Origin: Xenococcaceae cyanobacterium
GTDB taxonomy: Bacteria > Cyanobacteriota > Cyanobacteriia > Cyanobacteriales > JBFRWF01
Direction: 5' to 3'
Length of the DNA: 44,427 bases
NCBI GenBank assembly: GCA_051439465.1
Contig: JBFRWF010000102.1
Span: 1 to 44,427 of the forward strand
Both the position numbers and the translations under genes were made by a program. The notes beneath the pieces are model-generated. The model worked only from the letters and a program-made list of their open reading frames with translations, was not told where the DNA came from and made no database searches. Positions within the stretch are counted from its first letter, which is position 1. Each line of letters opens with the position of its first letter. Of the stretch, positions 20,940-40,299 are shown one piece after another.

Positions 20940-21923
20940 ATGCTTCAGTTCCAGATTCAGCCAGACAGTGAAATTCCCGTATCAAAGCAACTGTTTGACC
21001 AAATTCAGTTTGCGATCGCCTCTCGGCAATATCCCCCTGGCCATCGGTTGCCCAGTACGCGGCAATTAGCAATGATCACTGGTTTACACCGCAATACCAT
21101 TAGCAAGGTGTATCAGCAACTCGAAGAAATTGGACTGGTGGAGTCCCTGGCAGGATCGGGCATCTACGTCAGAGCACAAGGTCACGAAGGCGGTACTCAA
21201 GTTGGCTCCCCCATTTTCGAGCAGTATCCCGAAGCTAACAAGCTCGTAAAAAAGAGTTTAGATGAACTGCTAGTGCAAGGATTTACTCTCAGTCAGGCAA
21301 GGGAGTTGTTTCTCTCAGAAATTGACTGGCGCTTGCGCTGTAATGCGCGGGTGCTGGTGACGGTTCCTGCCAAAGACATTGGTGCTGGGGAGTTGATGGT
21401 CAAGGAACTGGAGCAATCCCTGGGTATTCCCGTGCAACTGATACCCCTCGAAGAACTAGGGCAAGTGCTAGAGAAAACCCAATCCGGCACAGTGGTTACC
21501 AGCCGTTACCATATTCGTAAAGCAGAAGCGATCGCCGCCCCGAATTCTGTTCGGGTGATTCCGGTTGATATCTATGACTACGGCAAAGAATTAGAAATTG
21601 TTAAAAGGCTGCCGAAGAATAGCTGTTTGGGTATCGTCAGTCTCAGTGCTGGCATTCTCGGAGTAGCAGAAATCATCATTCATAGTGTGTGTGGGGATGG
21701 CCTACTGGTAATGACTGCCCAGGTAAGTGACACCTATAAACTGAATGCCTTGGTTCGCTCTGCTCAGACAATCATCAGCGATCGAGCGAGTTATCCTCTT
21801 GTGAAAAAGGCAGTCTCAGCCGCCAGAGACGATCTTATTCGTTATCCAGAGCTGATTTGCAGCGACAATTATATCGGGGAAAAATCAATTAATCTGCTCA
21901 AACGAGAGCTCGGTTTGGGTTGA
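20940..21923 (+). CDS. GntR-family transcriptional regulator with a C-terminal effector/substrate-binding-like domain
   Basis: N-terminal winged HTH typical of GntR (RLPSTRQLAMITGLHRNTISKVYQQLEEIGLVESLAGSGIYV). It is divergent from the dienelactone hydrolase gene (94-bp gap). Confidence 0.75.
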   Translation: MLQFQIQPDSEIPVSKQLFDQIQFAIASRQYPPGHRLPSTRQLAMITGLHRNTISKVYQQLEEIGLVESLAGSGIYVRAQGHEGGTQVGSPIFEQYPEANKLVKKSLDELLVQGFTLSQARELFLSEIDWRLRCNARVLVTVPAKDIGAGELMVKELEQSLGIPVQLIPLEELGQVLEKTQSGTVVTSRYHIRKAEAIAAPNSVRVIPVDIYDYGKELEIVKRLPKNSCLGIVSLSAGILGVAEIIIHSVCGDGLLVMTAQVSDTYKLNALVRSAQTIISDRASYPLVKKAVSAARDDLIRYPELICSDNYIGEKSINLLKRELGLG

Positions 21924-22653
21924 GCAAAAATTCGCATATCCAACAAATGAGGAACGAAAAATAACCATTTTCAGCTCTCCCCCGCTCCCTGCTCCCTGCT
22001 CCCTTGCTTGCCTCAATCAGAATTTCCCGATTACTGGACCGATGCTCTAGGGGGATTTAATTTGAGCGAACGGTGAGTTCGAGATCGCCAGACTTTTTCC
22101 CGTCTTCATCCCGTTCCCGATCACATCAGCGATCGCCCCCCCCCTGAACGGTTACGAATCAGGAGAAGTGGAAGTGATCCCTCCAGCTTGCTTCTTTTCG
22201 GAAGATAAGACTCTTTATCCGAAGATAAGTGTTGACCACGCTTAAGTAGCTCAATGCCTGAAATCTATTAGCAATAAGAGCTACTGGCTCTTCATGGTCT
22301 TCATAAAGAAAAATTCTTAACTTCTTTCTTAAGTTCCTAAACTTAGGTTGTTCAGAAAAGGTTGTCCTGGCAAACTGGCTTAGTAGAAGCTTTAAACTCA
22401 AATCCAATTAAACCTAATGACCCAAAGCTATGAGAAGTATCACTTGGGTGTGTCTGCTTTCGTCAATTAACGAAATTGTTTGGAGGCGATCGCCACCTCT
22501 ACCTCTTCGAGGTGTTATCTAGTCAAGTTAATGGTTTGAACTGCAGTAAAAAAATGCGGAATCTTAACAAGTTCGCCTGTAGGTTAGTTTAAGTTGATGA
22601 AAAAAGATTGAGACTGTTGTGATAATGTACTGACCTATAAACCTTGGAAAAGT

Positions 22654-24321
22654 ATGACTAAGTCACCTGATGCACCTAATACAGCCGAGAATTTTAAGAA
22701 GTCCTTCTCGGTTCTACTGAAGGCTCGGTATCCATACCTTTATATTTCAACCTGGGAAGAAGAGCGAGTCCTGGCATTAATCCAGGAAGTGGTCAGAACT
22801 GCGGCTCTCATTCGCACGCCCCGCAAGCTATTTACCTGGAGCGTCACTGAAGGGATTGTTGAAAATGGGCAGCGTAATAATCAAAAGACCGATCCCTTTA
22901 AAATCCTTGATTTTATTGATGCTCATCAAGAGGCATCTGTGTTTGTGCTCAAAGACTTTCACATTTATCTAGGTACGCGACAAGTTGCTGTGAGAGAGAG
23001 TTTGACTGAACCCTCCCTCATAATTCGTAAACTCAGAGATCTCGTTCCCAATCTCACTAAGAGTAACAAACCCAAAAATGTGGTGTTTGTTTCACCCTCT
23101 TTGGTATTACCTGCTGACCTAGAAAAAGATATCACTATCGTAGACTTTGATTTACCGAGTTTCCCAGAAATCCAACAGAAGCTGCAGGAAATCATTGACA
23201 CAAACCGTCAAGGAGGCCGGATTGTTATCAAACTGAATCCTGAGGAGGAGGAACGTTTAGCTAAGGCTGCAACAGGCTTGACATTGCAAGAAGCAGAAAA
23301 TGCGTTTGCCCGTGCGATGGCTGAAGATGGTCGATTAGATAACCAATCCGTTGGGCGGATTTTGCAAGAAAAACGCCAGATCATCAAAAAAATGGAGATT
23401 CTTGAGTTTATCCCACCGGAATTGACAATGCAGGATGTTGGTGGGCTAGAAAATCTCAAAAACTGGTTTAGGAAGCGCGAGAGGGTTTGGTTGGGGGCAG
23501 CACAACGCTATGGTTTATCAGCTCCTAAGGGAGTATTAATTACAGGGGTACCCGGTTGTGGAAAAAGCTTAATTGCTAAAGCAATCAGCACAATGTGGCA
23601 GTTGCCATTGCTCCGGCTTGATGTCGGTCGAATTTTTGGCGGCTTAGTAGGGAGTAGTGAAGAGAATATGCGTCGGGCAATTAAGACTGCAGAAGCCACA
23701 GCTCCTTCTATCTTATGGATTGACGAAATTGAGAAAGGGTTTAGTGGTGATGGGCGTGGAGATAGTGGCACATCAATGCGAGTGTTTGGTACCTTCCTGA
23801 CATGGATGCAGGAGAAAACTAAGCCTGTGTTTGTGGTGGCAACGGCTAATAAGATTCATGCCCTTCCTCCCGAATTTCTACGTAAGGGGCGGTTTGACGA
23901 AATCTTCTTTGTGGATTTGCCTACTCGCAAGGAACGTATCGAGATTCTTAGACTGCATATTACCAAGCGGGTTGATCCAACAATGATGGAAGGATTTCAA
24001 CTAACACAGCAGGTACTTGAGTATTTAGCCAAGTCTACTGAAGGGTTTATTGGTGCAGAACTGGAGCAAGTCGTAGTAGCAGGGCTATTTGAAGCATTTT
24101 CTGAAGGCCGAGGTCTACGTATTGAAGACTTTGTCAAAGCCGTTAAAAATATGGTGCCCCTTTCTGTAACTCAAGTTGAAGCAATTCGGCACATTCGAGA
24201 ATGGGCCAATGAACGTGCTGTGGCGGCAACTCCTAAGGAAGACCGGATTGAGTATGCTCAGTCCACAGAATCTAAAGCAGATGTCAAGGCAACGCGAGGA
24301 GGACGGGCTGTAGATTTCTGA
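22654..24321 (+). CDS. AAA+ ATPase (CDC48/FtsH-like ATPase module with a distinct N-terminal domain). Resembles the stress-induced cyanobacterial slr0374-type ATPase
   Basis: Walker [16 protein letters not shown], Walker [10 protein letters not shown], second region of homology [28 protein letters not shown]. It is followed by two small conserved ORFs, as in the slr0373-0374-0376 arrangement. The latter comparison is from memory and is not verified. Confidence 0.8.
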
Positions 24322-24384
24322 GGGAAAGTTTATTTTTTAGGTCAAATTTTGGGAAGTCATCAATGTTGCTTTGAGAAGTTAGCC

Positions 24385-24837
24385 ATGAGTATTGAGGTAA
24401 TCTTAATTCCGTTAGCATTGGGAGCTGGTTCTATTGCGCTGGCAAGGCGTGTAGCGGCTAGAGGTCAAGTTACTGCAAATCCTGAAAACGTGCTTTGTTT
24501 TGAAACTCAGTTTAAGGATTTAAGGTTATTGCAAAAATCGCTTCAAGGCTTGGATCATCCGTGCAGGCTTGATGGCAGTCAAGTCCAATCTAGTCATGGT
24601 GGCGATCGCCTCGTTTTCGCGCTCAATCAACAGGGTACATTCGATGCGTACTTTGTTAGCACTGCAGTGAATGAAGCAAAGGCATTTCTGAGCAAGCTTG
24701 ATAACCAATATAGGAGGTTAGTCCAACAACAAAGTTATGAAACAGTGGTCAGGCGAGCTGAGGAACAGGGCATGATACTGGAGCAAGAAGAGGTATCAGA
24801 GGATGGAACAGTCGTCTTGACATTTCTAGAGCGGTAA
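24385..24837 (+). CDS. Small conserved hypothetical protein, downstream partner of the AAA ATPase (possibly DUF1257-like)
   Basis: 150-aa ORF starting MSIEVILIPLALGAGSIALARR (hydrophobic N-terminus), 63 bp after the ATPase stop. The domain assignment is a recollection of a conserved neighbourhood, not demonstrated here. Confidence 0.45.
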   Translation: MSIEVILIPLALGAGSIALARRVAARGQVTANPENVLCFETQFKDLRLLQKSLQGLDHPCRLDGSQVQSSHGGDRLVFALNQQGTFDAYFVSTAVNEAKAFLSKLDNQYRRLVQQQSYETVVRRAEEQGMILEQEEVSEDGTVVLTFLER

Positions 24838-24851
24838 AGGAGGAATAAAGC

Positions 24852-25082
24852 ATGGTAAAACGAATCCAGATTAAGATCCTACCCAATGGACAAATAGAAG
24901 CCATAACACAGGGAATTAAGGGGAAAACCTGCTTAGACTACGTTAAACGCTTTGAAGAACTCCTAGATGCTCAAATCACAGACTCGAATTTCACATCGGA
25001 ATATGATGAGGTCGAACAAAGCGTTGTTCAAACATATATTCAAACCGATTTGGAACAAACATTAGACCGGAATTTCGAATGA
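24852..25082 (+). CDS. Small conserved hypothetical protein (76 aa; possibly DUF2997-like)
   Basis: Strong RBS (AAGGAGGAATAAAGCATG). MVKRIQIKILPNGQIEAITQGIKGKTCLDYVKRFEELL. Begins 14 bp after the previous gene. Confidence 0.5.
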   Translation: MVKRIQIKILPNGQIEAITQGIKGKTCLDYVKRFEELLDAQITDSNFTSEYDEVEQSVVQTYIQTDLEQTLDRNFE

Positions 25083-25128
25083 TAATGCTGAAGATCTCCC
25101 TAAGTCCTCTGTTTAAAAGGTAAAGCCC

Positions 25129-25746
25129 ATGACAAGGAAGCTTGAACGTAAGGTTAATGATAGTTTGATTGCTGGCGTTTGTGCTGGGATTGCAGACTAT
25201 TTTCAAATCAGCCCTATGGTTGTTAGGGCTGCATTCGTATTCTTTGGTTTTGTATCGGGCGGTATGTGTATCTTTATCTATATTGTGTTGGCGATCGCAC
25301 TCCCCAGGGCTAAAAAAAGCCAGCAAAATTTTCAGACAACCAACCCTCCGTTCAATCCAAATCAGTACGATCCACAGCAATATCGCGTAACACACTACGA
25401 GACAAAACATTCGGCATCAACCGTTACCCAGAATGCTCCTTCTCAAGTTCCATATCAGCCTGCTGGGCACTCCACCTCTCGCCCTCCGACAACACTTGAT
25501 GTGAACCGCGCATCTGAACAAGAACTGTTGGCTCTGCCAAGTCTCACTGCGATCGAATGCAAACAAATTATCCAAGCGCGCCAGAAAAGAGGGGGCTTCC
25601 AGTCTGCTGAAGAGGTGGCAGAGCTAATTAGGAAACCCCATATTCTATCTTTGATTACGGTCTCGCCTGTGCAGCGCAATTCCCATTCTGGGGGGCAGTC
25701 TAACCCAGGATCACGACAAACCAGTGGAAGAAGGGTGGATTACTAA
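25129..25746 (+). CDS. PspC-domain membrane protein fused to a C-terminal ComEA-like helix-hairpin-helix DNA-binding motif
   Basis: N-terminus matches the PspC domain (RKVNDSLIAGVCAGIADYFQISPMVVRAAFVFFGFVSGGMCIFIYIVLAIALP). A Pro/Gln-rich linker follows. The C-terminus LDVNRASEQELLALPSLTAIECKQIIQARQKRGGFQSAEEV is a ComEA-type HhH. Confidence 0.7.
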   Translation: MTRKLERKVNDSLIAGVCAGIADYFQISPMVVRAAFVFFGFVSGGMCIFIYIVLAIALPRAKKSQQNFQTTNPPFNPNQYDPQQYRVTHYETKHSASTVTQNAPSQVPYQPAGHSTSRPPTTLDVNRASEQELLALPSLTAIECKQIIQARQKRGGFQSAEEVAELIRKPHILSLITVSPVQRNSHSGGQSNPGSRQTSGRRVDY

Positions 25747-26339
25747 TGTTGCTTCGCATTCACCGTTTTCTACCATTTACCCGAGTGGAAGGCCCAGGAG
25801 AACGAGCTTGTCTTTGGGTACAAGGGTGTTCAATTCAGTGCCAAGGTTGTGGAGTGCCCTGGACTTGGGACAAAAACGGGGGCGAATCGGTTGAGGTCAC
25901 TGCTCTGGCTGAACAGATAGTGAATGGTCCCATAGTAGAGGGGATTACCTTTTTGGGAGGTGAACCTTTTGATCAAGCGACTGCTTTAGCTGAGTTGAGC
26001 TATCAGCTACGGGATGCAGGGCTTTCGATCATGACGTTTACGGGGTATGTCTTGGAGATCCTACAACAATCCACCCGTCAGGATTGGCAATCCTTGCTAT
26101 CTGTGACAGACTTGCTAGTTGATGGCCCCTTTCGCAATGACTTGCTCGACTTAAGCCGACCCTGGGTGGGTTCCTCCAACCAGCGCTACCACTTCCTGAG
26201 CGATCGCTATCGTCACCTGGAAGCAGAACTTAACTCCATTCCCAATCGCCTTGAGGTTCGTCTTCAAGCTGATGGACACATTTTAGTCAATGGCATGGCA
26301 ACATCCGCAGATTTGGAAAACCTGTTGGTTGACTTATAG
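25746..26339 (+). CDS. NrdG-like radical-SAM activating enzyme (4Fe-4S single-cluster domain protein)
   Basis: VEGPGERACLWVQGCSIQCQGCGVPWTW parallels E. coli NrdG VNGPGTRCTLFVSGCVHECPGCYNKSTW (CxxxCxxC radical-SAM cluster). There is a GGEP motif. Its start overlaps the previous stop (TAATG), suggesting translational coupling. No NrdD or glycyl-radical enzyme is nearby. Confidence 0.75.
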   Translation: MLLRIHRFLPFTRVEGPGERACLWVQGCSIQCQGCGVPWTWDKNGGESVEVTALAEQIVNGPIVEGITFLGGEPFDQATALAELSYQLRDAGLSIMTFTGYVLEILQQSTRQDWQSLLSVTDLLVDGPFRNDLLDLSRPWVGSSNQRYHFLSDRYRHLEAELNSIPNRLEVRLQADGHILVNGMATSADLENLLVDL

Positions 26340-26447
26340 GCCACTTGCCTACAAACGACTCCTTCCTGAAATTGAGTCGCACTTAAGTTAACACACTTAA
26401 ATTTTGAAATTTTCAGAGAGTTGATATTTCAAGGGGATAACTGACCA

Positions 26448-28862
26448 ATGGTAGAGCATGAGGATATCTGGATTGAGGCGGCACTGAATCTAACTTCATC
26501 TGGCCTCGCAGATCTTTTGAAAAAGCTTCCACCTTCTAGGATGCAGAAGCTAGCAATAGAGGCTGCTAGCGGAAATAACTTACAAATGCGGGTTTATGGA
26601 TTGACGCTGGTTAGCCAAGATCATGCTGTGGGAGGAGATCCTCAAATAGGGCTGTTCCTGGCCAAATTGGGTATGCGGCTTTGTATGCAGTGTTTTGAAC
26701 GGCAGGGTTCTGGTCCCGCTGATACCTTCGTGTTTGGGGTGAGTCAATTTGCTTTGAATGCTAATAGGAGCTGGCATAGATTAGATGAGCATCAGCAACA
26801 GTTGGCAGTTATTGATGATACCTTAGCTTGGTTATCCCAACGGAAAGCTAAGGCAGTCTATTCCAAGGATCTAAAATTTGCCAGAGTCGGGGTTCTGATT
26901 GAGCTAGACAGACCGGAAGAAGCGTACGAAGCACTCAATGATGCCCGTAATGAATTCGATCGGACTCGCCAAGAACTTGATAAAGAGGATCGTGAAACAT
27001 TGAAGAAGCATTTTTTGGATCCAATTCTGGATGAGCGTATCAGTGAACGGTTGCTTCCTGCTACTAAACTTAAAGATCGTGATGATACAAACAAGAAAGC
27101 CAATGACAGTCAGCGTAATATGCTCCGAACTGTACTCGGCAATCTTTCGTCCATAGAATCAAAATTTGAGAACCTTTTCGAATCCCTGCAACAACAGCTT
27201 AGCAATGAGCCAACACCGGTATCTCCTACAGAAACCATCAAACAAGCAAACCTTTCCTACGATAGGATTAGCCAATTTTTAGAGGGTCAAGCAGGCGGCT
27301 CTGGCCCTGAGTATCGTCTGAAATCCACGATTCAGAGGGTATCAGCTGTTTTAGCTGATGAGCAGCAAGGACATGATCTACAGACGCTACGAGAATCACA
27401 ACAAACCCTTGAAAGTGTCCGTAAGGAGGCTGGGTCTCAGCAATTTTCTGATATTGTTGAGCAGACCCTATGGCCCCTGTACCTTTGTTATAAGCGTCTT
27501 GGTAAGCGTAAATCTGGTTTTGAAGTTCTCCAAGAAATTCGCCGTTGTGTCCGAGAACGTCGCAAGCAAATATTGGATCCGTTGAAACGGGCATATGTTG
27601 CGCAGCAATACCCTTACCTTTATTTTGCGCTTTGTGAATACTTAATCCAAGATGACAATCCCACTGAACTGCTCTCTGTAATCGAAGAGGCCAAGGGACG
27701 GGTCCTGGCTGATATGGTGGAAAGCCATGCTGCACAGGCACAGATTCCTACATTACCAGGGCAGGCAGCTGACTGGTTACCAGATCATATGAAAAGTCTC
27801 GGTGCCCATTATGTAACCTTCCTGGTTGATGCGGATAAAACCTATGCAGTTTTGCTTGGACGGGATGCCAGCATACATATGGCTGAATTGCCTATCGGGG
27901 AAGCTCAGCTTCACAGGCTTAGACACTGTCTCGATCCATCACTTTGGGGTAAGCGGATTGATTGGTTTGACACTTATCCTACAGATGTTGTGCAGCAGCT
28001 CTCTCCCTTAACGAGTTGGCTCCAGCCAATGGTTCACAGTGGATTACTCCGTCAGGGCGATCATATCTGTTATGCCCCGGATGGGATATTACATCTCGTG
28101 CCGCTCCACTACGTTGATTTCTGTGGGAAACCGCTAATAGAGATGTTCTCATTGTCACGAACCCACTGTGCTTTGCTCTTGTGGGAGTCTACTCGTGAAC
28201 CTGTCAGAAGCCTTGACCATAGTGTGGCCGTTAAAGTGCCAACGATCGATGAGTTTAAAGAGCAACCTGAGAAGGTGGCAAAGCTTGCCCTTGCACCAAA
28301 ATGGCTGGCTGAACATAGAAGAGCCGAGATTTTAGAAGACACAAATGCTGACCTATCAGCTTTAGCAAACATGACACTAAGCAGCAGCATCATCCACTTT
28401 GCAACCCATGGTACGTTTACTCCTGGACAGAATCCTTTTTATCACTCCGGTCTTCTGCTAGCCATCAATGGAGAGTTTCCTAACAAAAATGGATCCAGGG
28501 AATTGCTATCACCAGAGCGGGTAATGGAACAAGGAAATAAGTTTAATTTTCGTGGTTCGCACGTTACGCTTCAGGCCTGTGTTTCTGGTTTGTCTGAAGA
28601 GGGGGCTGGAGGTGATGCCCTTGGCCTTGAATGGAGTCTTCTGATAGCAGGAGCAAGTAGTATCCTCTCTTCCCATTGGGATGTGTCAGTTCATGCCTCA
28701 TCTGACTTCAGTGTGCGGTTTTATGAAAACTGGCTTGAGCAGGGGATGAGTCGCGCCAGTGCTTGGCGAAACGCTTGCTTAAGCCTGATGAGTGACGATC
28801 CTTTTCAAGGAGAAAACGTAGACAAGTGGGCAGCATTTAGCCTGGCTGGTGACTGGCGTTAA
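26448..28862 (+). CDS. CHAT-domain protein (caspase-like His/Cys protease fold) with a large alpha-helical N-terminal region
   Basis: The C-terminal ~250 aa have the CHAT catalytic dyad context (SIIHFATHGTF ... HVTLQACVSGLSEEG ... LLIAGASSILSSHWDVS). The N-terminal ~550 aa are helical with no named domain. Confidence 0.8.
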   Translation: MVEHEDIWIEAALNLTSSGLADLLKKLPPSRMQKLAIEAASGNNLQMRVYGLTLVSQDHAVGGDPQIGLFLAKLGMRLCMQCFERQGSGPADTFVFGVSQFALNANRSWHRLDEHQQQLAVIDDTLAWLSQRKAKAVYSKDLKFARVGVLIELDRPEEAYEALNDARNEFDRTRQELDKEDRETLKKHFLDPILDERISERLLPATKLKDRDDTNKKANDSQRNMLRTVLGNLSSIESKFENLFESLQQQLSNEPTPVSPTETIKQANLSYDRISQFLEGQAGGSGPEYRLKSTIQRVSAVLADEQQGHDLQTLRESQQTLESVRKEAGSQQFSDIVEQTLWPLYLCYKRLGKRKSGFEVLQEIRRCVRERRKQILDPLKRAYVAQQYPYLYFALCEYLIQDDNPTELLSVIEEAKGRVLADMVESHAAQAQIPTLPGQAADWLPDHMKSLGAHYVTFLVDADKTYAVLLGRDASIHMAELPIGEAQLHRLRHCLDPSLWGKRIDWFDTYPTDVVQQLSPLTSWLQPMVHSGLLRQGDHICYAPDGILHLVPLHYVDFCGKPLIEMFSLSRTHCALLLWESTREPVRSLDHSVAVKVPTIDEFKEQPEKVAKLALAPKWLAEHRRAEILEDTNADLSALANMTLSSSIIHFATHGTFTPGQNPFYHSGLLLAINGEFPNKNGSRELLSPERVMEQGNKFNFRGSHVTLQACVSGLSEEGAGGDALGLEWSLLIAGASSILSSHWDVSVHASSDFSVRFYENWLEQGMSRASAWRNACLSLMSDDPFQGENVDKWAAFSLAGDWR

Positions 28863-28897
28863 GCATAGAAATACATTGAGTGAGGTAACTTTTTAAT

Positions 28898-29383
28898 ATG
28901 TCTGCAAAATTACAACAACAGATTGAGCAGCTTGACGATTATAAAGCAGTACGTCTGCTTGAGCGTTTCTCAAAACTTCTGCTTGAAGGGCTCCAAACCC
29001 CTGTTAGCGAAATGATGTCTGCTGTCATACCAGAGGTGAGAGACAGCAATTTCTTTCAAAAGATTCAAGCACTCTCACCTGAAGAGCGCAGCCGTCCACT
29101 TACAGAATCTCAGTCTATAGCAATTGCCCGAGGACTACTTCGCTATTGTGCACAGGAGCCAGCATTAGCACCTTCACTTGAGTCGGTGCTAAATAACTAT
29201 ACAGAAAATGATCGATTATTGGCTGGTCTTATCCTGTCTACTGGTGTTGCCATCTCTATGGTTATTGTGGCATCCACAACACGCTTTAAGGCACGAATTG
29301 GTAACAATATTGTGATTGAGAAGACCACTGCAAATGCTGAGCTGGTTGGTGCTATTACTAAAAATTGGCAAATTAAGAGCTAA
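28898..29383 (+). CDS. Hypothetical protein (161 aa) with a C-terminal hydrophobic segment. Lies immediately downstream of the CHAT protein
   Basis: An ORF begins 35 bp after the CHAT stop. Hydrophobic stretch LAGLILSTGVAISMVIVAST. No domain recognised. Confidence 0.4.
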   Translation: MSAKLQQQIEQLDDYKAVRLLERFSKLLLEGLQTPVSEMMSAVIPEVRDSNFFQKIQALSPEERSRPLTESQSIAIARGLLRYCAQEPALAPSLESVLNNYTENDRLLAGLILSTGVAISMVIVASTTRFKARIGNNIVIEKTTANAELVGAITKNWQIKS

Positions 29384-29433
29384 GCCCATCCGTCAAAGAC
29401 ATAAACTAGTCAAAAACTAGGAAAGATTCAGTC

Positions 29434-31422
29434 TCAATTGCAGTGATATAGTCTATAACTGTAACCATTGACCTTAAGTCGACTTCGGGAGTCTTTCTGA
29501 CAATTGTATGTTTCCGGGTTAATAGTTGGGTGGAAATTGATTGTCCATAAATCTAGAGGTCGCTTTTGTTGAGCGAGAGTGTTGTAGAGGACTGCTGTAG
29601 CGCTTTGAGAGTCATTGTCCTTTTCATGAGCTAAAAGAAACTGTGGGGGACTGAAAGTTAAATCTGTAGTTGGTGAGGGTTCAAGATGTTTAAATTCCCA
29701 CGCTATAACCATTAAGGCTCTTGTTTCCGCATGAGTTTGATGCTCAGTGGCGATTAAAACTGGAGCATCAGACATAGATTGAATCTGGGAAACTAGGAGA
29801 TCGGGGCGTCTCGATTTTTGGTAGCCCAGATTGGAGACTACTGTTAATGCACCGATTAAACCCATGAGCAAAACTGCTCCCACTACCTTTTTCCCTCTAG
29901 CTTTGAGAGAATTAGGTTTCTTGAAGATTTTAGCAAAATTTATCTTTTCTGACTTTTGATTTTTGACTTTGAGCGTTCCCGAAGGGTGGCGAAGCCTAGG
30001 GAATGATACGAAATCCTGGTCTAAAACCCCCTTTATCAATTTGTTGTCTTTTTCTTCCCCTGCTCCCCCCTCTCCGTTCCCCGTTCCCTGTTCCCTGTTC
30101 CCTGTTCCCTGTTCCCTACTACCCTCAAAAAAGGGGTAGTTAACCCGGATTTGGTATGACTCTTCCCAGCAGCTAGCAAGAGCTGCCCCCAATAACACGA
30201 TGAGGGCAGGAAAATAAACGAAATGATATCGAGCAGCGAGGGTCAAATCAATGCCAAGACCATAGGTAAAGACCAAGAAAACAGCGATCGCTGCCAATAC
30301 AAACCCACCTAAAACCTGAGTGATTAAACGAGTTGATGGAAAATTCATCCTTGTTCTTATGCCACAAATGAAAGCAGGGCAAACCCAGATTAGAAACAGG
30401 AGCAGGATTAGAGCAGAAGCTATGATAACTGGCAAATTTTGTCCTTCCACAGGCAGCATAAACAGCATGGTAATTACCCAAACCAAGAGTCGAGCAATGG
30501 GTTCGAGCAATTCTTTAAAGTCTAGATCGTGTTGAATCCATTGAATCAGATTATAGTTAGGGATAGCTGAGGTGACGGGTAACCAGACTAAGCCTGCCAT
30601 CAGAGTTCCCACAGCTACTATGTAAATCCGTCGCCAATGTTGGCTGTTGAGTAGGGGGATGGTAAAGACTGTTTTCTTTGTTCCCTTGGGTTGAGCAAGT
30701 ATCCTACATCTAAAATCCCAAAGCCAGAATCCTGCTATAACTAGCCCCTCGCTACATAGGATGAGGAAAAAAAGGTAATGGGACGCAATTCCTAAACTGT
30801 TTACCCCGATCCAAGTCAATCCTACCCAAATTGGGAAGGAAGTCTGCTTCCAGATATATCTAGTGGCGATCGCTAAGCAAGCTAGGGAAGCAATGCTCCA
30901 TAATACTGCTAGGGTGTAATGGCGAGCTTCTTGAGCCAGATAGATGCCGTAGGGCGAAACCGCCATCAGAGCTGCTGCTATTTGACCGACTAATCGAGAG
31001 CGGAAGGCAAGGTAGCCCAAGGAAAATATGGCTGGAATCGATGCTATACCGAAAATGGCACTGAGCGATCGCCCTGTCCACAGTAAATCCAGTTCCCCAT
31101 TGATGGAAAATAGCTTCATCCAGAGATGTGTTAGCACAAAGTAGGTAGGTGGATGAGTATCCTCATTAATCAAGTAGTGGGTAACATCGTGGATATTTGC
31201 GGTAGAGTTGAATTGCAAGGGCTGTAAGAGACTTTCTAGGGGGAGTGCTCGATCTAGTGGCACTTCTAGCAAACTATTGCCCAAGCTAAAGACTAGAGTA
31301 GCCAGTTCACTAGTTGAGGGAGTTTTATCTGCCAAGTTAGTGAAGCGTAGAAGCACACCGACTGATAACCATATAAGCAGTAGCAGGGGATGTACCCAAA
31401 AACCTAAAGACAAATTGTTCAA
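29434..31422 (-). CDS. Polytopic membrane glycosyltransferase, GT39/ArnT-PMT-like (family 39/83 type), with an in-frame repeat insertion and a C-terminal soluble extension
   Basis: N-terminal ~410 aa have many TM helices and the typical early loop (DKTPSTSELATLVFSLGNSLLEVPLD...THPPTYFVLTHLW). The (GTTCCCT)n dispersed element at 30075-30162 is translated in-frame as NREQGTGNREQGTGNGEGGAGEE. Confidence 0.6.
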   Translation of the reverse strand: MNNLSLGFWVHPLLLLIWLSVGVLLRFTNLADKTPSTSELATLVFSLGNSLLEVPLDRALPLESLLQPLQFNSTANIHDVTHYLINEDTHPPTYFVLTHLWMKLFSINGELDLLWTGRSLSAIFGIASIPAIFSLGYLAFRSRLVGQIAAALMAVSPYGIYLAQEARHYTLAVLWSIASLACLAIATRYIWKQTSFPIWVGLTWIGVNSLGIASHYLFFLILCSEGLVIAGFWLWDFRCRILAQPKGTKKTVFTIPLLNSQHWRRIYIVAVGTLMAGLVWLPVTSAIPNYNLIQWIQHDLDFKELLEPIARLLVWVITMLFMLPVEGQNLPVIIASALILLLFLIWVCPAFICGIRTRMNFPSTRLITQVLGGFVLAAIAVFLVFTYGLGIDLTLAARYHFVYFPALIVLLGAALASCWEESYQIRVNYPFFEGSREQGTGNREQGTGNGEGGAGEEKDNKLIKGVLDQDFVSFPRLRHPSGTLKVKNQKSEKINFAKIFKKPNSLKARGKKVVGAVLLMGLIGALTVVSNLGYQKSRRPDLLVSQIQSMSDAPVLIATEHQTHAETRALMVIAWEFKHLEPSPTTDLTFSPPQFLLAHEKDNDSQSATAVLYNTLAQQKRPLDLWTINFHPTINPETYNCQKDSRSRLKVNGYSYRLYHCN
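30075..30162. repeat. ~88-bp dispersed element, copy 2 (heptamer array + ccctcaaaaaaggggtagttaacccggatttggtatgact), located inside the GT39-like CDS
   Basis: Near-identical to 19003-19089 (2-3 mismatches outside the heptamer array). Same orientation. Confidence 0.8.
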
Positions 31423-34898: not shown

Positions 34899-37800
34899 AT
34901 GAAAAATTTCAGTAGTCCAGAACAAAAGTTAGAACAGCAGCGCTCAACCTCAAGTCATAAGTCACCACAAGAGCGTGTAGATGAATGGATTTCTGGTAGC
35001 GCGGTAAGTCCAGAACTGACCGAAAAATGGCTAGAGCAGCAGTCCGACAAAAAGGAGATCGCCCGCCTGCTAGCCTGGAAATATTACAGTCACACTCCTG
35101 GCTGGTACGTGCGCTCTTGCGATCCACACACGGGAATGCGTGGGGATTTTGGACAATTCAAGCCAGACTCACCGCTTCAATTCCCCGACTCTGACAAGCC
35201 CTGTAAATACTTCACTTTCCCCAAAGGCAGGGGGACAGAGGCAATCTACAGCGTGATGACGCTTAACGAGTGGATCTCAATCAGCGAGCGGGTTGGGGTA
35301 GACATAGAAACCAAGGACATTGATGAATCCCGCGATGATTTAGGTTTCTGGCGTTGGGTAATGAATCACCCTGAGATTCCCATAATCATTACTGAGGGAG
35401 TTAAGAAACAGGGTTGTCTGCTAACTTGGGGGTGGGTGGCGATCGCCCTTACCGGAGTATGGAACGGACAGCAAAAGCGCAAACTGCACCCGTCCCTTAA
35501 ACCTTTCATTGTGCCTGGACGCGTAGTTTATGCTTGCTTTGATGCCGATGTGGTAGTCAAGGTCGAGGTAGAACGCGCCCTCAAGGTTTTTGGGCAGGTC
35601 GTCCGGCGCGAAGGTGCCTCAGTTTTTATTATTAACTGGAATTTAGAACTGGGCAAGGGCTGCGATGACTTGATTGTCAATGAAGGCTATAATTCATTTG
35701 AAGAGGCTCTCCATAATGCCACCCCTTATAGTGAATGGCTCAAGTCTCTCAAAACTGAACAGCCCAAGAAAAAAGGCTCACTGGTAGCTGCTGATGTTAT
35801 TGGTGGCAGCGGCGGTGGTAATAACAACGGTAATGGTGGTGGTGGGAACAATGGCGGTGATGGCTCTGGTGGCGATCGCTCCCGAGAGAACAACGAGAAA
35901 AAGAATCCAGAATGGCGCTATAAAAATGTTGCCGACGCACTAGAACTGCCTTTTTCTGATTGCGTTACTGCTGGAAGCTTCGATGGGTATGTCTACCGAG
36001 AAATATTTGGGGCCGGAACTGAAAATTGGGCAGCGATCGACACTGCCTTTTACCACAACACAGAGCAGGGCTACTGGCAGCATCAGGAAGATAAATTCAT
36101 TCACAAACTGATCTGCGATGCCTCCCAAAAGGCTTACAAGCTCAAATCCTCGAAATTAGAGGGCTGGTGGGCTACCTACCCCTACGAAACAAACAGCTCG
36201 TCCGAGTCTGCCTTTAAGTTTGTTCGCAAGCGCTTGGAGTTAGATAACTTACCGTCCAATGTACATTTGAGGGCATTCAATAATTGTACCGTGGATATGA
36301 GGACGGGTCAAACCATGCTCCACGACCCCGCCCATTTCCTAACTAGCCAGGTTCCTTACGATTACTACCCTAACCGTCCATGTCCTGAGAATTTCTACAA
36401 CTTTATTTGTAGTTCCTTCGGGGAAGATTTACTCTGTGTCATCCGGGCGTTTACCTCAATGTTTCTAGATCCGACGGCTCCCTATGGGCGATTTCCTCAT
36501 CTGTTTGGGCCATCAGGTTCAGGTAAGGGAGTGATGGGGCGATTGTGGAGTTCTATGTATGGAACCGTAGGCTCGGCTTCCCTGGCCAGTTTCGAGGAGC
36601 TGGCATCTGCAGAAGGACGGCATCAGTACCTCACTGGGAAATCTATCTGCGGCATTCCCGATGTCGGCGGTTATGTCAAGGGACTACGCGCTTTCTACGA
36701 GCTTATAGACAATGGTGAGATGTCGGGCCGGGCACTGTTTAACCCTACTGGCTATCAGAAGCTTTGGAATATGCGTTTCTGGGTGGCTTCTGTTGACCAC
36801 CTGCAAATTGAGAACGCCGGGGATGGTTGGGCTCGCCGCGCATACCCCATTCCTACTAAGGGCAAGCCAGATAATGTTGACCCCAACTTGAGGGTGAAGT
36901 TAGAAGCAGAGATAGGAGACATTATTTCATGGGCTTTGGCTATGCCCAGAGAAGAGCGCGATCGCATTCTTTTGGGTGAGCCCACCAACTCTCGAGTCAT
37001 CAATGCCATCACTGATGCCGCTCTCTACGGTGACAGTACTAAGAGCTTTGTCGATCTGTGCCTGCGCCCTTCTGACAATCCTGGCAATGTTCCCAATCAC
37101 ATGCTGCACTCCTGGTATGTCGCCTACTGCGACAAGCACGGCTATACACCGATGGGGATGTCCAAGTTCATCTCCCACCTCAAAACCATCCTGCCGAAAA
37201 ACCATGTCCAGCGCGGTTGGTCGCCAATGACTAATGGCAAGCGCTCACAGGTTTCGGCTCACTGGGAATATATTGTATCTCTTCGGGGGGCTCTTGTAAC
37301 TATAAACAATGGTGCTGACAACGGCTATCAGGGTTCAGCTAATCAAGAGCCCGAGTGGAAGTGCATGAAATCTAAATGTGTGGAAGGAGGGTTATTTGAG
37401 TTTGAGGATTTTTGGAATCCACCAGAACCACCTGGGCCACCTCAACCACCTCAGCCACCTCAGCCACCTGAACCTGATGATGGTGGTCCCGGCGGTGGTG
37501 GTCCTGATAATAACCCTCCGACTGCCGATCCTGCTCCAGATTCGGATTCAAAATCGCCAGAACCACCTAGCAGTAAGGGTGTGCAGGGTGTACATGCTGT
37601 ACAGGGCAGCTCAGAAAATCCCGAATCGCTGAAACAACGCAGTGGTGCGGGTGTGCAGGGTGTGCAGGGTGGATCGCACAGAGATCCGGACTTTGAAAAA
37701 ATATCAGTAGCTGTTGTAGAAAAAAATGAGGTGGCGCAAACAGTAGAAAGGGTAGAAAGCCCCCTGTCCACCCCTGTACAGTTACCAGTTACCAGTTATC

Positions 37801-38948: not shown

Positions 38949-38964
38949 AACCCGATCAATCATT

Positions 38965-40299
38965 ATGCTTAGACAACTCGATTTGTGCTCAGGAGTCGGA
39001 GCAGGATTCCCCCTTGCAGGGTTCAAACTCGGAGGTTTTGAACTGCTCGGTCTCTGCGAAATTGACCCCTACTGCCAAGACATCCTCGGTAAACGATTCC
39101 CCGAAGTTACAATCTTCAAAGATGTCCAAGAACTTAAAGAAGGCGGAGTCTACAAATCAGGAGAAATCGATATTATCACAGCCAGCCCACCTTGCCAGCC
39201 CTTCTCAGTCCAAGGGAAACGGCTCGGAGCTGACGACGAAAGAGACTGCATACCCGCAGTCATGGAAGCGATCGCAAGCATTAAGCCTAGATTCTTTGCA
39301 ATTGAGCAAGTGCCAGGGCTGCTTACGTGCCCTTTCAAACCCGGATACGGTTCAGGCTCCTACTTCAAAATCCTACTCGGAGCCATTTTCGAGTGCGGGT
39401 ATGGGGTGGAATGGCAAAATATTGGATCAGGAAACTTTTCCTCTCCCTTCCCTAGAAGAAGGTTACTGCTGGTTGGCGTCTCCAACAGCGTTAAGCTCGA
39501 CTGGGAACTCCCGACCCCCTGGGCTGAGCAAGTTAGAAAGTCAGTTGAAGGAAATGGTAGTCCTAAAATCAGGGGAGTGCTTGAATCCGAGGTGGCTAGA
39601 AGTTTGGTTGGGTATGCCGCTGAACTGGCTCAACCCATTGGAATTACGTCCGGCAATGGAGTTGTTAGAAGACAACGTGAAGCAGCAGGAAATTCTCTCG
39701 ACCCAAGAGTTGCTGCGATCGCACTCCAAAGAATCATCTATCTTAATTCGGAAGTGACCAAATACACATCTCAATCCAAAGACAAGCTCCGCCACGACAC
39801 CGACGAATCTCATTCACCTGAACCTGAAAATAATGGTCGGTCACCTTCGGTGCGCCTTCGGCGAGCGCAAGATGATGATTGGCTTGATAATTCTCCAACT
39901 TCTGCTGAATCTAATTCTAGCCCACTGACTGGATCACCTCAACATCAGGAAAGTAAGGAGCGGTCACCTTCGGTGCGCCTACGGCGAGCGCCTGAACTGC
40001 TCCAAGTTAATCCGCACTCACTCAAGCCGCACCCGCGCAATCGGTCGATCTATGGTAAAGACGAAGATATCTCAGACCTGGTAGAGCAGATCCGGCGCAC
40101 TGCATGGATCAAGCCACTTGTGGTGAATAAACAGCACCAGATTATTAGTGGTCATAGGCGCTGGAAAGCAGCACTTGCGCTGGGACTGGAAACTGTTCCT
40201 GTGGAGGTAAGGGAGTTTGAGTCTGAGCTAGATGAACTTGAAGCCTTACTGCTAGAGAACCAATACCGGGAATCGTTCAGCGTTACCAAATGCCTATAA
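38965..40299 (+). CDS. Fusion protein: compact DNA (cytosine-5)-methyltransferase domain (N-terminal ~270 aa) plus a ParB/Srx-like nuclease/NTPase N-terminal domain (C-terminal ~100 aa), joined by a linker with a duplicated ERSPSVRLRRA motif
   Basis: C5-MTase motifs I (DLCSGVGAGF), IV (ASPPCQPFS), VI (IEQVPG), IX-like (RGVLESEVARSLVGY), X (AAGNSLDPRVAAIALQRI). ParB signature in NPHSLKPHPRNRSIYG...LVEQIRRTAWIKPLVVNKQHQIISGHRRWKAALALGLETVPVEV (GxRR box). Confidence 0.75.
   Translation: MLRQLDLCSGVGAGFPLAGFKLGGFELLGLCEIDPYCQDILGKRFPEVTIFKDVQELKEGGVYKSGEIDIITASPPCQPFSVQGKRLGADDERDCIPAVMEAIASIKPRFFAIEQVPGLLTCPFKPGYGSGSYFKILLGAIFECGYGVEWQNIGSGNFSSPFPRRRLLLVGVSNSVKLDWELPTPWAEQVRKSVEGNGSPKIRGVLESEVARSLVGYAAELAQPIGITSGNGVVRRQREAAGNSLDPRVAAIALQRIIYLNSEVTKYTSQSKDKLRHDTDESHSPEPENNGRSPSVRLRRAQDDDWLDNSPTSAESNSSPLTGSPQHQESKERSPSVRLRRAPELLQVNPHSLKPHPRNRSIYGKDEDISDLVEQIRRTAWIKPLVVNKQHQIISGHRRWKAALALGLETVPVEVREFESELDELEALLLENQYRESFSVTKCL

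Follow-up and report, generated by a model that had tools for sequence, protein, structure and literature searches.

A radical-SAM enzyme of the glycyl-radical-enzyme activase lineage is encoded in a mobile five-gene cassette with an AAA+ ATPase and HhH proteins that end in a common C-terminal tail

We analyzed a 44,427-nucleotide stretch of DNA from a Xenococcaceae cyanobacterium (contig JBFRWF010000102.1, assembly GCA_051439465.1), which is called the window below; the genes and features of interest are listed in Table 1. A preliminary description had singled out two adjacent reading frames, one for a PspC domain fused to a ComEA-type HhH domain and the other for a 197-residue radical-SAM enzyme, and both were confirmed. 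Pfam recognizes PspC and HHH_3 domains in the first protein, with a P/Q/N/T-rich linker between them. The CxxxCxxC motif of the second is C28-x3-C32-x2-C35 inside VQGCSIQCQGCG, with the cluster codons at 25827-25850. The junction reads ...GAT TAC TAA TG..., where the HhH stop (25744-25746) and the radical-SAM ATG (25746-25748) have one base in common, as expected from the TAATG overlap reported earlier. A promoter and terminator scan of positions 21900-29500 gave a promoter-like site at 22597-22626, just 5' of the AAA start, and nothing above shuffled expectation.

Table 1. Genes and C-terminal tails at the locus (positions in the window)
Feature	Position	Strand	Evidence or remark
AAA+ ATPase, 555 aa	22654..24321	+	Pfam AAA E 2e-29, AAA_lid_3
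C-terminal tail of the AAA ATPase	24295..24318	+	conserved across cassette AAA ATPases
DUF1257 (Ycf35)-like protein, ~150 aa	24385..24837	+	weak Pfam DUF1257, cassette homologues
DUF2997 protein, 76 aa	24852..25082	+	Pfam DUF2997 E 9.6e-14, 51.4 bits
PspC + HHH_3 protein (HhH client), 205 aa	25129..25746	+	Pfam
C-terminal tail of the HhH protein, G-R-R-V-D-Y-COOH	25726..25743	+	conserved across cassette partners
Activase-type (GRE-AE-like) radical-SAM enzyme, 197 aa	25746..26339	+	Pfam Fer4_12, 117.8 bits
CHAT protein	26448-28862		108 nt downstream of the radical-SAM gene; Pfam CHAT E 2.3e-33

These two genes are the 3' end of a five-gene cassette with the order Cdc48/Ycf46-like AAA+ ATPase, DUF1257-like protein, DUF2997 protein, HhH protein and radical-SAM enzyme. 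The three upstream genes and the common C-terminal tail went unnoticed in the first reading. We fetched 80 related loci, 61 of which had enough flank. The complete set was present in 68 of the 80 and in 59 of the 61, and an identical gene set was found in Priestia, Paenibacillus and Elainellales. The gene 5' of the radical-SAM gene overlaps its start in 53 of 79 related loci, and the gene immediately 5' bears the conserved tail in 69 of 79; the stop/start coupling is therefore no chance feature. Thus, the HhH and radical-SAM genes are the tight pair they were proposed to be, with translational coupling and linkage that are retained, not lost, across phyla and in archaea. Their proposed standing as a functional unit in themselves holds only in part, because the coupling is conserved but the pair is just one end of a larger cassette. 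Similarly, the CHAT gene does follow the pair as described, but this adjacency is not conserved among related loci: with phmmer, a homologue of the window CHAT protein was found in the window only among the fetched loci, and we rejected it as a cassette member. In one cyanobacterial relative, an unrelated CHAT gene lies three genes away. Clustering of 570 flanking ORFs revealed no conserved sixth gene: the families recovered were all generic (ABC ATPases, histidine kinases, GGDEF proteins).

Relatives of the radical-SAM enzyme are encoded in at least 392 of 185,579 species-level genomes. Cassette hosts include Cyanobacteria, Bacillota, Actinomycetota, Proteobacteria, Planctomycetota and others as well as archaea, and aerobic or oxygenic groups (Cyanobacteria, Bacillaceae, Paenibacillus) are among them. 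The radical-SAM homologues are 50-75% identical across phyla and domains, which implies recent transfer. The cassette lies between IS4 copies on a Bacillus megaplasmid, is also carried on a Rhodococcus conjugative plasmid and a Paenarthrobacter plasmid, and is adjoined by an integrase in Priestia. The HhH and radical-SAM genes are the 3' module of this horizontally mobile five-gene cassette. Phages are not an evident source: phage matches to the radical-SAM enzyme are ordinary NrdG proteins of at most 40% identity, and phage homologues of the AAA ATPase (L007, L008) are 31-40% identical and have no tail. No description of the cassette was found in full-text searches of the literature or among curated models; Ophion (radical-SAM, PHP and PRTase) and the FtsH-ternary radical-SAM effector are different systems. 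In addition, there is a related radical-SAM clade of 41% identity whose partners are a Clp-like AAA+ protein and a PIN protein; no common tail was seen there, and on conjugative plasmids the neighbors of this clade include ArdA as well as a PIN-domain protein.

The AAA+ ATPase consists of a degenerate AAA-like domain (residues 1-245), an active AAA domain (residues ~254-514), a disordered linker and the C-terminal tail. It matches phrog_8638 over its full length (E 1.5e-142), and its best PDB sequence matches are the D2 domains of VAT, p97 and Cdc48. The AF2 model of residues 1-245 (pLDDT 93.9) resembles the AAA+ folds of RFC, Pex1/6, Rix7 and TRIP13. The protein is type-II-like, with a degenerate D1 and a Cdc48-D2-like active ring. 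We considered and rejected a tail-binding N-domain, because residues 1-245 form a degenerate AAA+-like domain rather than a known peptide-binding module. Cassette AAA ATPases have a mean pairwise identity of 64%.

The DUF1257-like protein scores 19.7 bits against the Pfam cutoff of 22.2, a weak match, but its homologues are positionally conserved in the cassettes. Their conserved N-terminus, mS..l.liP.a, begins at M13 of the TTG-initiated ORF at 24349-24837, and the ATG at 24385 is the likely start. There is an N-terminal hydrophobic helix, and 69 of 74 homologues have one predicted transmembrane segment, so the protein is predicted to be membrane-anchored. The DUF2997 protein is conserved in cassettes with a G-x-K-G-K-x-C motif. 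Neither of these two proteins matched a solved structure by sequence. In the window the AAA gene stands next to the DUF1257 and DUF2997 genes, and this triad is widespread without the radical-SAM gene. The same three families occur together as the Ycf46/Ycf35(DUF1257)/DUF2997 set of cyanobacteria and red-lineage plastids, and we take the cassette AAA ATPase to be a Ycf46 family member. However, most of 150 distant AAA representatives lack the C-terminal extension and tail, and the canonical set has neither an HhH client nor a radical-SAM enzyme. A DUF2997-DUF1257(ycf35)-fed7 cluster has been described in cyanobacteria (PMC4284462), and ycf35 and ycf46 are each preferentially lost from freshwater red algal plastids (PMC5940233). 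The canonical set offers no mechanism to borrow.

The preliminary description took the PspC-HhH fusion to be the defining oddity of the locus, and this view did not survive comparison: cassette partners almost always carry HHH_3 (86 of 89) but rarely PspC (2 of 89), which makes the PspC domain lineage-specific. In the window protein, PspC (PF04024) spans residues 3-60 with 66.8 bits against a cutoff of 25, HHH_3 spans residues 123-164 with 29.2 bits against 27, and a disordered linker joins HHH_3 to the C-terminal tail. Other partners have N-termini of three-transmembrane (PF27171:YxeC-type in the Priestia locus), GYF_2, RDD or zinc-ribbon type. Cassette loci encode one to four HhH proteins, most with predicted transmembrane segments (at least one in 72 of 88). 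Although the window protein has ComEA-type HHH_3 and PspC domains, it falls well below the curated cutoffs for both families (TIGR01259 comE, 25.6 bits against 152.35; TIGR02978, 54 against 104), and its locus has no competence context and no nearby psp gene. ComEA is not known to end in this tail. The conserved parts of the cassette HhH proteins are the HhH domain, which may bind DNA judging by its family, and the tail.

NrdG- and PflA-type activases each classically act on a single glycyl-radical enzyme, and they are linked with anaerobic metabolism. The cassette radical-SAM enzyme belongs to this activase lineage, with NrdG and PFL-AE as its closest relatives. It had been called NrdG-like, and NrdG TIGR02491 is indeed its best NCBIfam model (105.3 bits, E 2.7e-30), though below the cutoff of 126.1; PRK11121 gave 66.8 against 199, and the score is below the PFLA cutoff as well. 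Like NrdG and PFL-AE, the enzyme is small and has a CX3CX2C cluster after a [DE]GPGxR loop together with GGE(P) and VGxSN motifs. All 20 homologues compared retain C28, C32, C35 and G71-G72-E73-P74. The E15-G16-P17-G18-x-R20 loop is also invariant and aligns with VDGPGIR of PFL-AE, which is the sole PDB match by sequence profile; the match covers this loop (veGpGeR against VDGPGIR) and a common VGxSN stretch. The AF2 model has pLDDT 94.1. Its best Foldseek match is the peptide-bound PFL activase 3CB8 (E 3.5e-9, 30% identity, TM 0.54 over 134 columns), followed by QueE (E 1.4e-4); the partial match to PFL-AE suggests a partial-barrel radical-SAM fold.

Unlike NrdG and PFL-AE, the enzyme has a conserved, family-specific C-terminal extension of ~45 residues, and it is fixed with AAA+, DUF1257, DUF2997 and HhH genes instead of a glycyl-radical partner. 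Its earlier designation as an orphan was borne out. None of the ten largest ORFs in the window encodes NrdD or another glycyl-radical enzyme, no gene for one recurs in the flanks of the 80 related loci, and no Pfam or PDB match from any of the four partner families indicates likeness to a glycyl-radical enzyme. Moreover, the cassette enzyme is frequent in aerobes and also occurs in an oxygen-evolving cyanobacterium, conditions that a long-lived glycyl radical would not withstand. The widespread name [quoted passage not shown], under which these genes appear in databases, is almost certainly wrong.

The most informative feature of the cassette is the common C-terminal tail. It closes the AAA ATPase as well as all HhH proteins and reads (G)R-x-[VIL]-D-[FY]-COOH. 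Among 67 cassette AAA ATPases, R-G-G-R and D(-2) are invariant and F(-1) is found in 64; among 88 HhH tails, R(-5) and D(-2) are invariant, G(-6) is found in 76, and 82 end in F or Y. When we searched 8374 six-frame ORFs with the expression R.[VILM]D[FY]$, the 155 matches comprised 86 HhH proteins, 68 AAA ATPases and one DUF2997 protein, and no other family. This DUF2997 protein, from locus L063, has acquired the tail (…DGRMVDF) and its gene abuts the radical-SAM gene; no further cassette gene lies less than 10 kb away. The 25 residues preceding each tail are 66-74% disorder-promoting. The tail is missing from most of 150 more distant AAA family representatives, and R(-8) of RGGR, present in all 67 radical-SAM-linked AAA ATPases, is missing in five tail-like AAA ATPases without a radical-SAM gene. 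Some related AAA ATPases that lack a nearby radical-SAM gene have looser ends of the form R-x-[IL]-[DE]-[FL] (L089, L090, L092, L093, L101). L090 is a TerD-AAA locus with DUF1257 and DUF2997 genes, and its DUF2997 protein has a GxKGxxC motif; L101 encodes an AAA ATPase ending in …GGRAIDF and a 341-residue transmembrane client ending in …RRLEL that has no HhH domain. In Rhodococcus the AAA (…RTFEF) and HhH (…RRLEF) tails depart alike from the usual D(-2). Such covariation within loci is not general, as L065 and L039 illustrate. Given the looser ends, the tail may be a general AAA-client coupling motif that is independent of the radical-SAM enzyme. Proteasome-type HbYX tails, which are common to different AAA activators, provide an analogy: these too are short C-terminal motifs whose last residue is aromatic or hydrophobic and leaves its carboxylate free. 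By this analogy, a tail common to an AAA ATPase and unrelated proteins would imply a common docking receptor. The cassette motif is R-x-phi-D-[FY], not Hb-Y-X, however, the cassette encodes no peptidase, and the receptor is putative.

We next considered what the activase-type enzyme may act upon. Activases act on 7-mer Gly-loop peptides such as RVSGYAV (PMC13450708) and tolerate a Y-to-F change (PMC13450708; PMC10267522), and loop A of PFL-AE takes part in peptide binding (PMC10267522). The spacing of the cassette tail matches that of the exposed R-V-x-G-[Y/F] loop used by activases (PMC13450708), in that R-x-x-[G to D]-[Y/F] parallels RVSGY with Asp at the position of the radical Gly. We infer that the substrate is a protein, rather than ribonucleotide reductase or a small molecule, and the C-terminal tails of the AAA and HhH proteins are the most likely candidates. 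In the proposed mechanism, reductive SAM cleavage would generate a 5'-deoxyadenosyl radical that abstracts a hydrogen atom from the tail, with Gly(-6) and Asp(-2) as candidate sites. Because many hosts are aerobic or oxygenic, the product would probably be a stable covalent modification or a cleavage, not a persistent glycyl radical. The same tail would also couple DNA-binding clients to the AAA motor, so that its modification would switch or commit that coupling. We assign a probability of roughly 0.4 to this reading, in which an activase-type radical-SAM enzyme acts on exposed tails that also couple clients to the AAA motor. In its favor are the activase character of the enzyme, the near-invariant and family-restricted tail, the position of a tail gene against the radical-SAM gene, the L063 pair, the strict R(-8) of radical-SAM-linked AAA ATPases and the disorder-like linkers before the tails. 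Against it, Gly(-6) is missing in 12 of 88 HhH tails, the likeness to RVxG[YF] could be coincidence, tail-like ends occur on AAA ATPases without the radical-SAM enzyme, and no common tail is seen in the related clade of 41% identity.

The tail could instead be purely a docking or degron motif of the AAA system, comparable to HbYX, while the radical-SAM enzyme modifies another site, for instance in a loop of one of three cassette partners (AAA, DUF1257, DUF2997) or in the product of a gene outside the cassette. We regard this as rather unlikely. It accommodates the tail-like ends on AAA ATPases and one client without a nearby radical-SAM gene, the triads that lack this gene, and the parallel deviation of the Rhodococcus tails, which suggests one common receptor. 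Yet it leaves unexplained why a tail-bearing gene almost always abuts the radical-SAM gene, why the tail is much stricter (RGGR) where that gene is present and why DUF2997 acquired the tail in the minimal pair at L063. Furthermore, we found no alternative conserved site specific to radical-SAM-linked cassettes, and the GxKGxxC motif of DUF2997 also occurs in L090, which lacks the enzyme. The constancy of HHH_3 as the one fixed partner domain raises a different prospect, namely that HhH proteins deliver DNA to a radical-SAM enzyme that modifies, repairs or damages DNA or nucleotides, with the tail merely tethering HhH proteins to the AAA motor. HhH clients are specific to radical-SAM-linked cassettes (the client at L101, a locus lacking the enzyme, has no HhH domain), the second-best fold match, QueE, is a small-molecule enzyme, and the related radical-SAM clade adjoins a PIN-domain protein. 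There is also a Rosetta-stone precedent in a "DNA modification/repair" radical-SAM family in which Fer4_12 and HHH_3 are fused and DUF4130 is the partner (bioRxiv 10.64898/2026.08.19.745780). The same two domains reside here on adjacent, translationally coupled genes, but the window enzyme has no NCBIfam match to the fusion family, its partners are AAA, DUF1257 and DUF2997 proteins, and no C-terminal tail motif is reported for the fusion family. We consider such DNA chemistry quite unlikely, given that the enzyme is closest, in sequence and in structure, to protein-directed activases and keeps their [DE]GPGxR loop, that no DNA-repair or DNA-modification radical-SAM model is present among the 14 NCBIfam matches at E <= 0.01, and that in L063 the partner of the enzyme is a DUF2997 protein bearing the tail, with HhH genes absent. 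That the HhH proteins bind DNA is itself a prediction from family membership.

If the enzyme were an ordinary paralogue of NrdG, serving a class III RNR or another glycyl-radical enzyme encoded elsewhere in the genome, this would account for NrdG being the best-scoring curated model and for the use of that name in JGI and some NCBI records. This explanation is already largely refuted and is highly improbable: the score is under the NrdG cutoff, the C-terminal extension is conserved, the same four non-RNR genes are linked in 59 of 61 loci of bacteria and archaea, the flanks show no recurrent NrdD, identity to phage NrdG proteins reaches ~40% at most, and the enzyme is common in aerobes. The biological role is a separate matter; DNA uptake or DNA modification, as put forward in the preliminary description, is conceivable. 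The cassette could provide anti-phage or anti-plasmid defense, with variable HhH proteins that sense incoming DNA close to the membrane and an executing module formed by the AAA motor and the radical-SAM enzyme; such a role could go with any biochemical reading, whether tail modification, DNA chemistry, docking or NrdG function. The patchy distribution, the high identity between phyla and domains, carriage on plasmids with flanking IS elements and the adjoining Priestia integrase all speak for defense. So do the variable client N-termini with up to four paralogues per locus, occasional neighbors such as a TIR protein, SspF, DrmD or a WYL protein, and the conjugative plasmids on which the related clade has ArdA and a PIN-domain protein as neighbors. 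Nevertheless, no PADLOC-DB v2 system model matches. The AAA ATPase shows only generic IetA/TRIP13 similarity, the radical-SAM enzyme a weak match to pVip (E 1e-3) and the HhH, DUF1257 and DUF2997 proteins none. Pfam and PADLOC scans of 114 immediate neighbors found mostly housekeeping genes (transporters, oxidoreductases, regulators) and no defense island, so that gene context lends defense no support, the cassette encodes no recognized effector (nuclease, pore former or NADase), and the CHAT adjacency is not conserved. Defense is accordingly an improbable role, though not a far-fetched one. An accessory membrane system, possibly one related to conflict or DNA, would agree with the patchy distribution, the carriage on plasmids and the variability of the client N-termini.

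Together, these results describe a well-conserved activase clade that is fixed in a cassette without a glycyl-radical enzyme and is found in many aerobic or oxygenic hosts. The full picture, in which a recruited activase modifies or cleaves a tail common to a Cdc48-like unfoldase and its membrane-anchored, DNA-binding clients as part of a radical-SAM-controlled AAA+ machine that spreads between bacteria and archaea by horizontal transfer, possibly a DNA-directed conflict system, is a tentative and somewhat doubtful one. If the tails are the substrates, then activase chemistry would extend to a new class of protein target. The tails would also define a short, synthesizable peptide substrate, making the question directly testable in vitro, and would give the first biochemical handle on the uncharacterized Ycf46/Ycf35/DUF2997 AAA+ systems of cyanobacteria and plastids.

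The PspC-HhH gene and the NrdG-like radical-SAM (rSAM) gene of the preliminary description are present on the source contig (44,427 bp, from a Xenococcaceae cyanobacterium MAG). Their domains were borne out by Pfam, with a P/Q/N/T-rich linker between PspC and HHH_3, and the HhH stop and the rSAM ATG have one base in common in the TAATG junction. The pair was correctly described, but it is only a fragment: it forms the 3' module of a self-contained, horizontally mobile five-gene cassette that also encodes an AAA ATPase, a DUF1257-like protein and a DUF2997 protein. The feature is real and strongly conserved, and it places a known kind of enzyme in a new system context.

Genes of the cassette and other features of the window
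Feature	Positions	Strand	Product	Description
SDF fusion	1745-3955	+	736 aa	Single ORF; sodium:dicarboxylate symporter (SDF) and family-3 solute-binding domain
Major Vault Protein homologue	4478-7177	+	899 aa	Full length; Vault repeats, Vault_2, Vault_3, Vault_4, MVP_shoulder (E 7.9e-53)
Second C5 methylase	7663-8916	-		
AAA ATPase gene	22654-24321	+	555 aa	Pfam; in the set directly upstream
DUF1257/Ycf35-like gene	24385-24837	+		Pfam; upstream of HhH gene
DUF2997 gene	24852-25082	+		Pfam; upstream of HhH gene
HhH gene	25129-25746	+	205 aa	Pfam: PspC aa 3-60, HHH_3 aa 123-164
rSAM gene	25746-26339	+	197 aa	Pfam: Fer4_12; C28-x3-C32-x2-C35
CHAT protein gene	26448-29383 region	+	804 aa	Begins 108 nt downstream of rSAM; C-terminal CHAT, long helical N-terminus
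ORF after CHAT gene	26448-29383 region	+	161 aa	No family match
Primase/helicase-like gene and C5 DNA methylase	34899-40299	+	1349 aa (primase/helicase-like)	DUF3854 + D5_N + Pox_D5; then methylase fused to ParB_N

The CHAT gene and the ORF that follows it lie directly downstream of the cassette. Elsewhere in the window, the primase/helicase-like gene and the methylase-ParB_N fusion look like part of a plasmid or an integrated mobile element. Vault proteins are regarded as eukaryotic, and a complete Major Vault Protein in a cyanobacterial MAG is therefore unusual.

Close homologues of the rSAM enzyme (60-75% identical) occur well beyond cyanobacteria. The neighbours are the same in loci from Priestia megaterium, an Elainellales MAG and Paenibacillus lentus, although in the last of these no AAA ATPase gene was seen. 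When one genome per species was scanned, 392 genomes proved to encode relatives. We fetched 80 loci, called ORFs in all six frames and used the window proteins as phmmer queries to annotate them. All five families were present in 68 of these loci; among those with at least 4.5 kb upstream and at least 2.5 kb downstream, the figure was 59 of 61. Hosts include Cyanobacteria, many Bacillaceae, Paenibacillus, Clostridium, Chloroflexota, Longimicrobium, Planctomycetota, Nitrospira, Bacteroidota, Alpha-, Beta- and Deltaproteobacteria, and the archaea Methanobacterium and Nitrososphaerales. Gene order is slightly variable, with the HhH gene usually abutting the rSAM gene. The flanks contain mostly transporters, oxidoreductases and regulators, together with a few isolated defence-type genes, and hold no conserved sixth gene. 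The CHAT neighbour had been noted as directly following the pair, but among the fetched loci phmmer detected a homologue of this protein in the window only. From the flanks as a whole, we consider the five-gene cassette self-contained. On one metagenomic contig (L102), a TIR_2 and pentapeptide-repeat protein (443-1720) is encoded directly upstream of a full cassette, on the opposite strand.

A plasmid search recovered the cassette from Bacillus cereus and B. thuringiensis megaplasmids, where it is flanked by two IS4 copies, from a Rhodococcus conjugative plasmid, and from a Paenarthrobacter plasmid, where it adjoins an integrase, an HNH gene and IS3 elements. At the locus on B. cereus plasmid NZ_CP106676.1 (L095; 393265-407843), the gene order is rearranged to rSAM, DUF1257-like, HhH, AAA, DUF2997, and the two flanking IS4 transposase genes are identical, with a single protein accession (WP_001056973.1). 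This cassette and its IS4 pair look like a composite transposon. No PADLOC, NCBIfam or PHROG model describes the cassette, nor does any paper found in the literature searched.

The three upstream genes match the AAA, Ycf35 (DUF1257) and DUF2997 gene set, and we take the ATPase to be Ycf46. Its active AAA domain is closest to D2 of VAT, p97 and Cdc48, and its N-terminal 245 residues form a degenerate AAA+-like fold with matches to RFC, Pex1/6, Rix7 and TRIP13; the architecture is therefore type-II-like. The HhH proteins carry HHH_3 in 86 of 89 cases behind variable N-termini: GYF_2 in 14, RDD in 2, zinc ribbons in 2 and PspC in only 2, with a three-TM N-terminus in many Bacillaceae (PF27171:YxeC match in the Priestia locus). 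Some Clostridium loci encode three or four HhH paralogues. By equivalog scores the window HhH protein qualifies neither as ComEA nor as PspC. Mean pairwise identity is 64% for the AAA ATPase, 55% for the rSAM enzyme, 45% for DUF2997, 35% for the DUF1257-like protein and 29% for the HhH protein. Because an N-terminal hydrophobic segment is found in 69 of 74 DUF1257-like proteins, and 72 of 88 tail-bearing HhH proteins have one or more predicted TM segments, the products are likely to form a membrane-associated assembly.

The rSAM enzyme has the ancestry and fold of a glycyl-radical-enzyme activase, and it resembles these activases in motifs as well, but it has no glycyl-radical partner; neither NrdD nor another such enzyme is present among the ten largest ORFs of the window. 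Its AF2 model is confident (pLDDT 94.1) and in structure best matches the peptide-bound PFL activase of E. coli (3CB8; E 3.5e-9, 30% identity), with QueE second; PFL-AE is its only PDB relative by sequence profile. That alignment covers the activase loop (veGpGeR vs VDGPGIR) and a common VGxSN stretch. Members of the family also share a conserved C-terminal extension of about 45 residues. Although the best curated model is NrdG, the score of 105 bits falls below the cutoff of 126, and the enzyme also differs from NrdG in partner and architecture. The view that it is an ordinary NrdG is essentially refuted. Of its public labels, '4Fe-4S single cluster domain-containing protein' and 'anaerobic ribonucleoside-triphosphate reductase activating protein', the latter is almost certainly wrong.

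A related rSAM protein (about 41% identical) occurs in a second conserved architecture on plasmids from Moellerella (L096, 1-7576), Polaromonas (pPNAP02; L098) and Leisingera (L100). Here the gene for a very large AAA-domain protein is followed by those for a PIN-domain protein (619-821 aa), a hypothetical protein (about 370 aa) and a Clp-like AAA ATPase (about 620 aa); last comes the rSAM gene, whose start overlaps or directly adjoins the stop of the AAA gene before it. The Moellerella set lies beside ArdA, a PD-(D/E)XK nuclease and an integrase. PADLOC does not contain this architecture, and no common C-terminal tail was seen in it.

In the five-gene cassette, by contrast, two proteins end in a common, conserved and exposed peptide encoded right beside the rSAM gene. 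In the window the ATPase ends R-G-G-R-A-V-D-F and the HhH protein G-R-R-V-D-Y. Across loci, the AAA tail is R-G-G-R-[TAS]-[IVL]-D-F (RGGR and D in 67/67, F in 64/67) and the HhH tail (G)-R-[IVLM]-[VI]-D-[FY] (R and D in 88/88, G in 76/88, F or Y in 82/88). The 25 residues ahead of each tail are 66-74% disorder-promoting. When the expression R.[VILM]D[FY]$ was run on all 8374 six-frame ORFs of at least 40 aa from all loci, 155 matched: 86 HhH proteins, 68 AAA ATPases, one DUF2997 protein and no member of any other family. The DUF2997 protein (74 aa, ending …DGRMVDF) is from a Bacillota MAG (L063, 9777-10606), and its stop overlaps the rSAM start. With no AAA, DUF1257 or HhH gene within 10 kb, this locus is a minimal two-gene version. 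The nearest gene upstream of rSAM is tail-bearing in 69 of 79 loci, with stop/start overlap in 53 of the 79. In Rhodococcus, E replaces D in both tails (…RTFEF, …RRLEF), a covariation that is not general but suggests a receptor common to the two tails.

Tail-like ends also occur without the rSAM enzyme. Searching the AAA family exhaustively without a profile gave 150 representatives (40-53% identity), most of which stop just past the lid domain without an extension; the strict tail was found in a handful only, and a looser R-x-[IL]-[DE]-[FL] in about a dozen. One strict-tail homologue, P0123, lies within a full cassette including rSAM. L090 (6001-8796) encodes a Ycf46-like AAA protein (709 aa, ending …GRAIEF) with TerD as an N-terminal fusion; DUF1257 and DUF2997 genes come next, whereas rSAM and HhH genes are both lacking. 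At L101 (1584-4259), an AAA protein ending …IGGRAIDF precedes a 341-aa multi-TM protein that lacks HhH and ends …SRRLEL; rSAM is absent from this 5-kb contig, so AAA and client also share tails when no rSAM gene is on the contig. Loci L089 and L092 encode stand-alone AAA ATPases with looser tail-like ends, and L093 is a phage-like contig. Coupling through a tail of this general type thus seems intrinsic to this AAA family and its clients. Specific to rSAM-linked cassettes are the strict tail with R(-8), HhH-type clients and a tail-bearing gene placed against rSAM.

Activases recognise R-V-x-G-[Y/F] loops, act on 7-mer peptides and tolerate a Y-to-F change (PMC13450708; PMC10267522). Spacing in the cassette tails is identical (R-x-x-X-[F/Y]); Asp takes the place of Gly, and a Gly usually directly precedes the Arg. 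The rSAM enzyme may thus be protein-directed, with the tails as its best candidate substrates. Our tentative reading, to which we give a probability of about 0.4, is that it acts on the tails and that their modification or cleavage alters client-AAA coupling. It is doubtful that the tail is a mere docking or degron motif while the rSAM enzyme acts elsewhere; tails do exist without the enzyme, but this explanation accounts for neither the adjacency of tail gene and rSAM nor the stricter motif. Radical chemistry directed at DNA or nucleotides, with the HhH protein as DNA-binding subunit, would fit the strict association of rSAM with HhH clients and has a precedent in a Fer4_12-HHH_3 fusion family annotated as a DNA modification/repair rSAM (bioRxiv 10.64898/2026.08.19.745780). 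The activase-type features and the L063 pair, which lacks HhH, make it quite improbable. A defence function concerns role and is compatible with any of these chemistries. Mobility, patchiness and variable client N-termini are consistent with defence, which we nevertheless consider unlikely, since no PADLOC system model matches, the flanking genes are mostly housekeeping ones and no effector is obvious.

If the rSAM enzyme does act on the tails, stable modification or cleavage would be more plausible than a persistent glycyl radical, which is O2-labile and therefore unlikely in the many aerobic or oxygenic hosts. Such a change would alter the coupling of DNA-binding clients to the AAA motor, and short synthetic peptides offer a direct way to address the substrate question.
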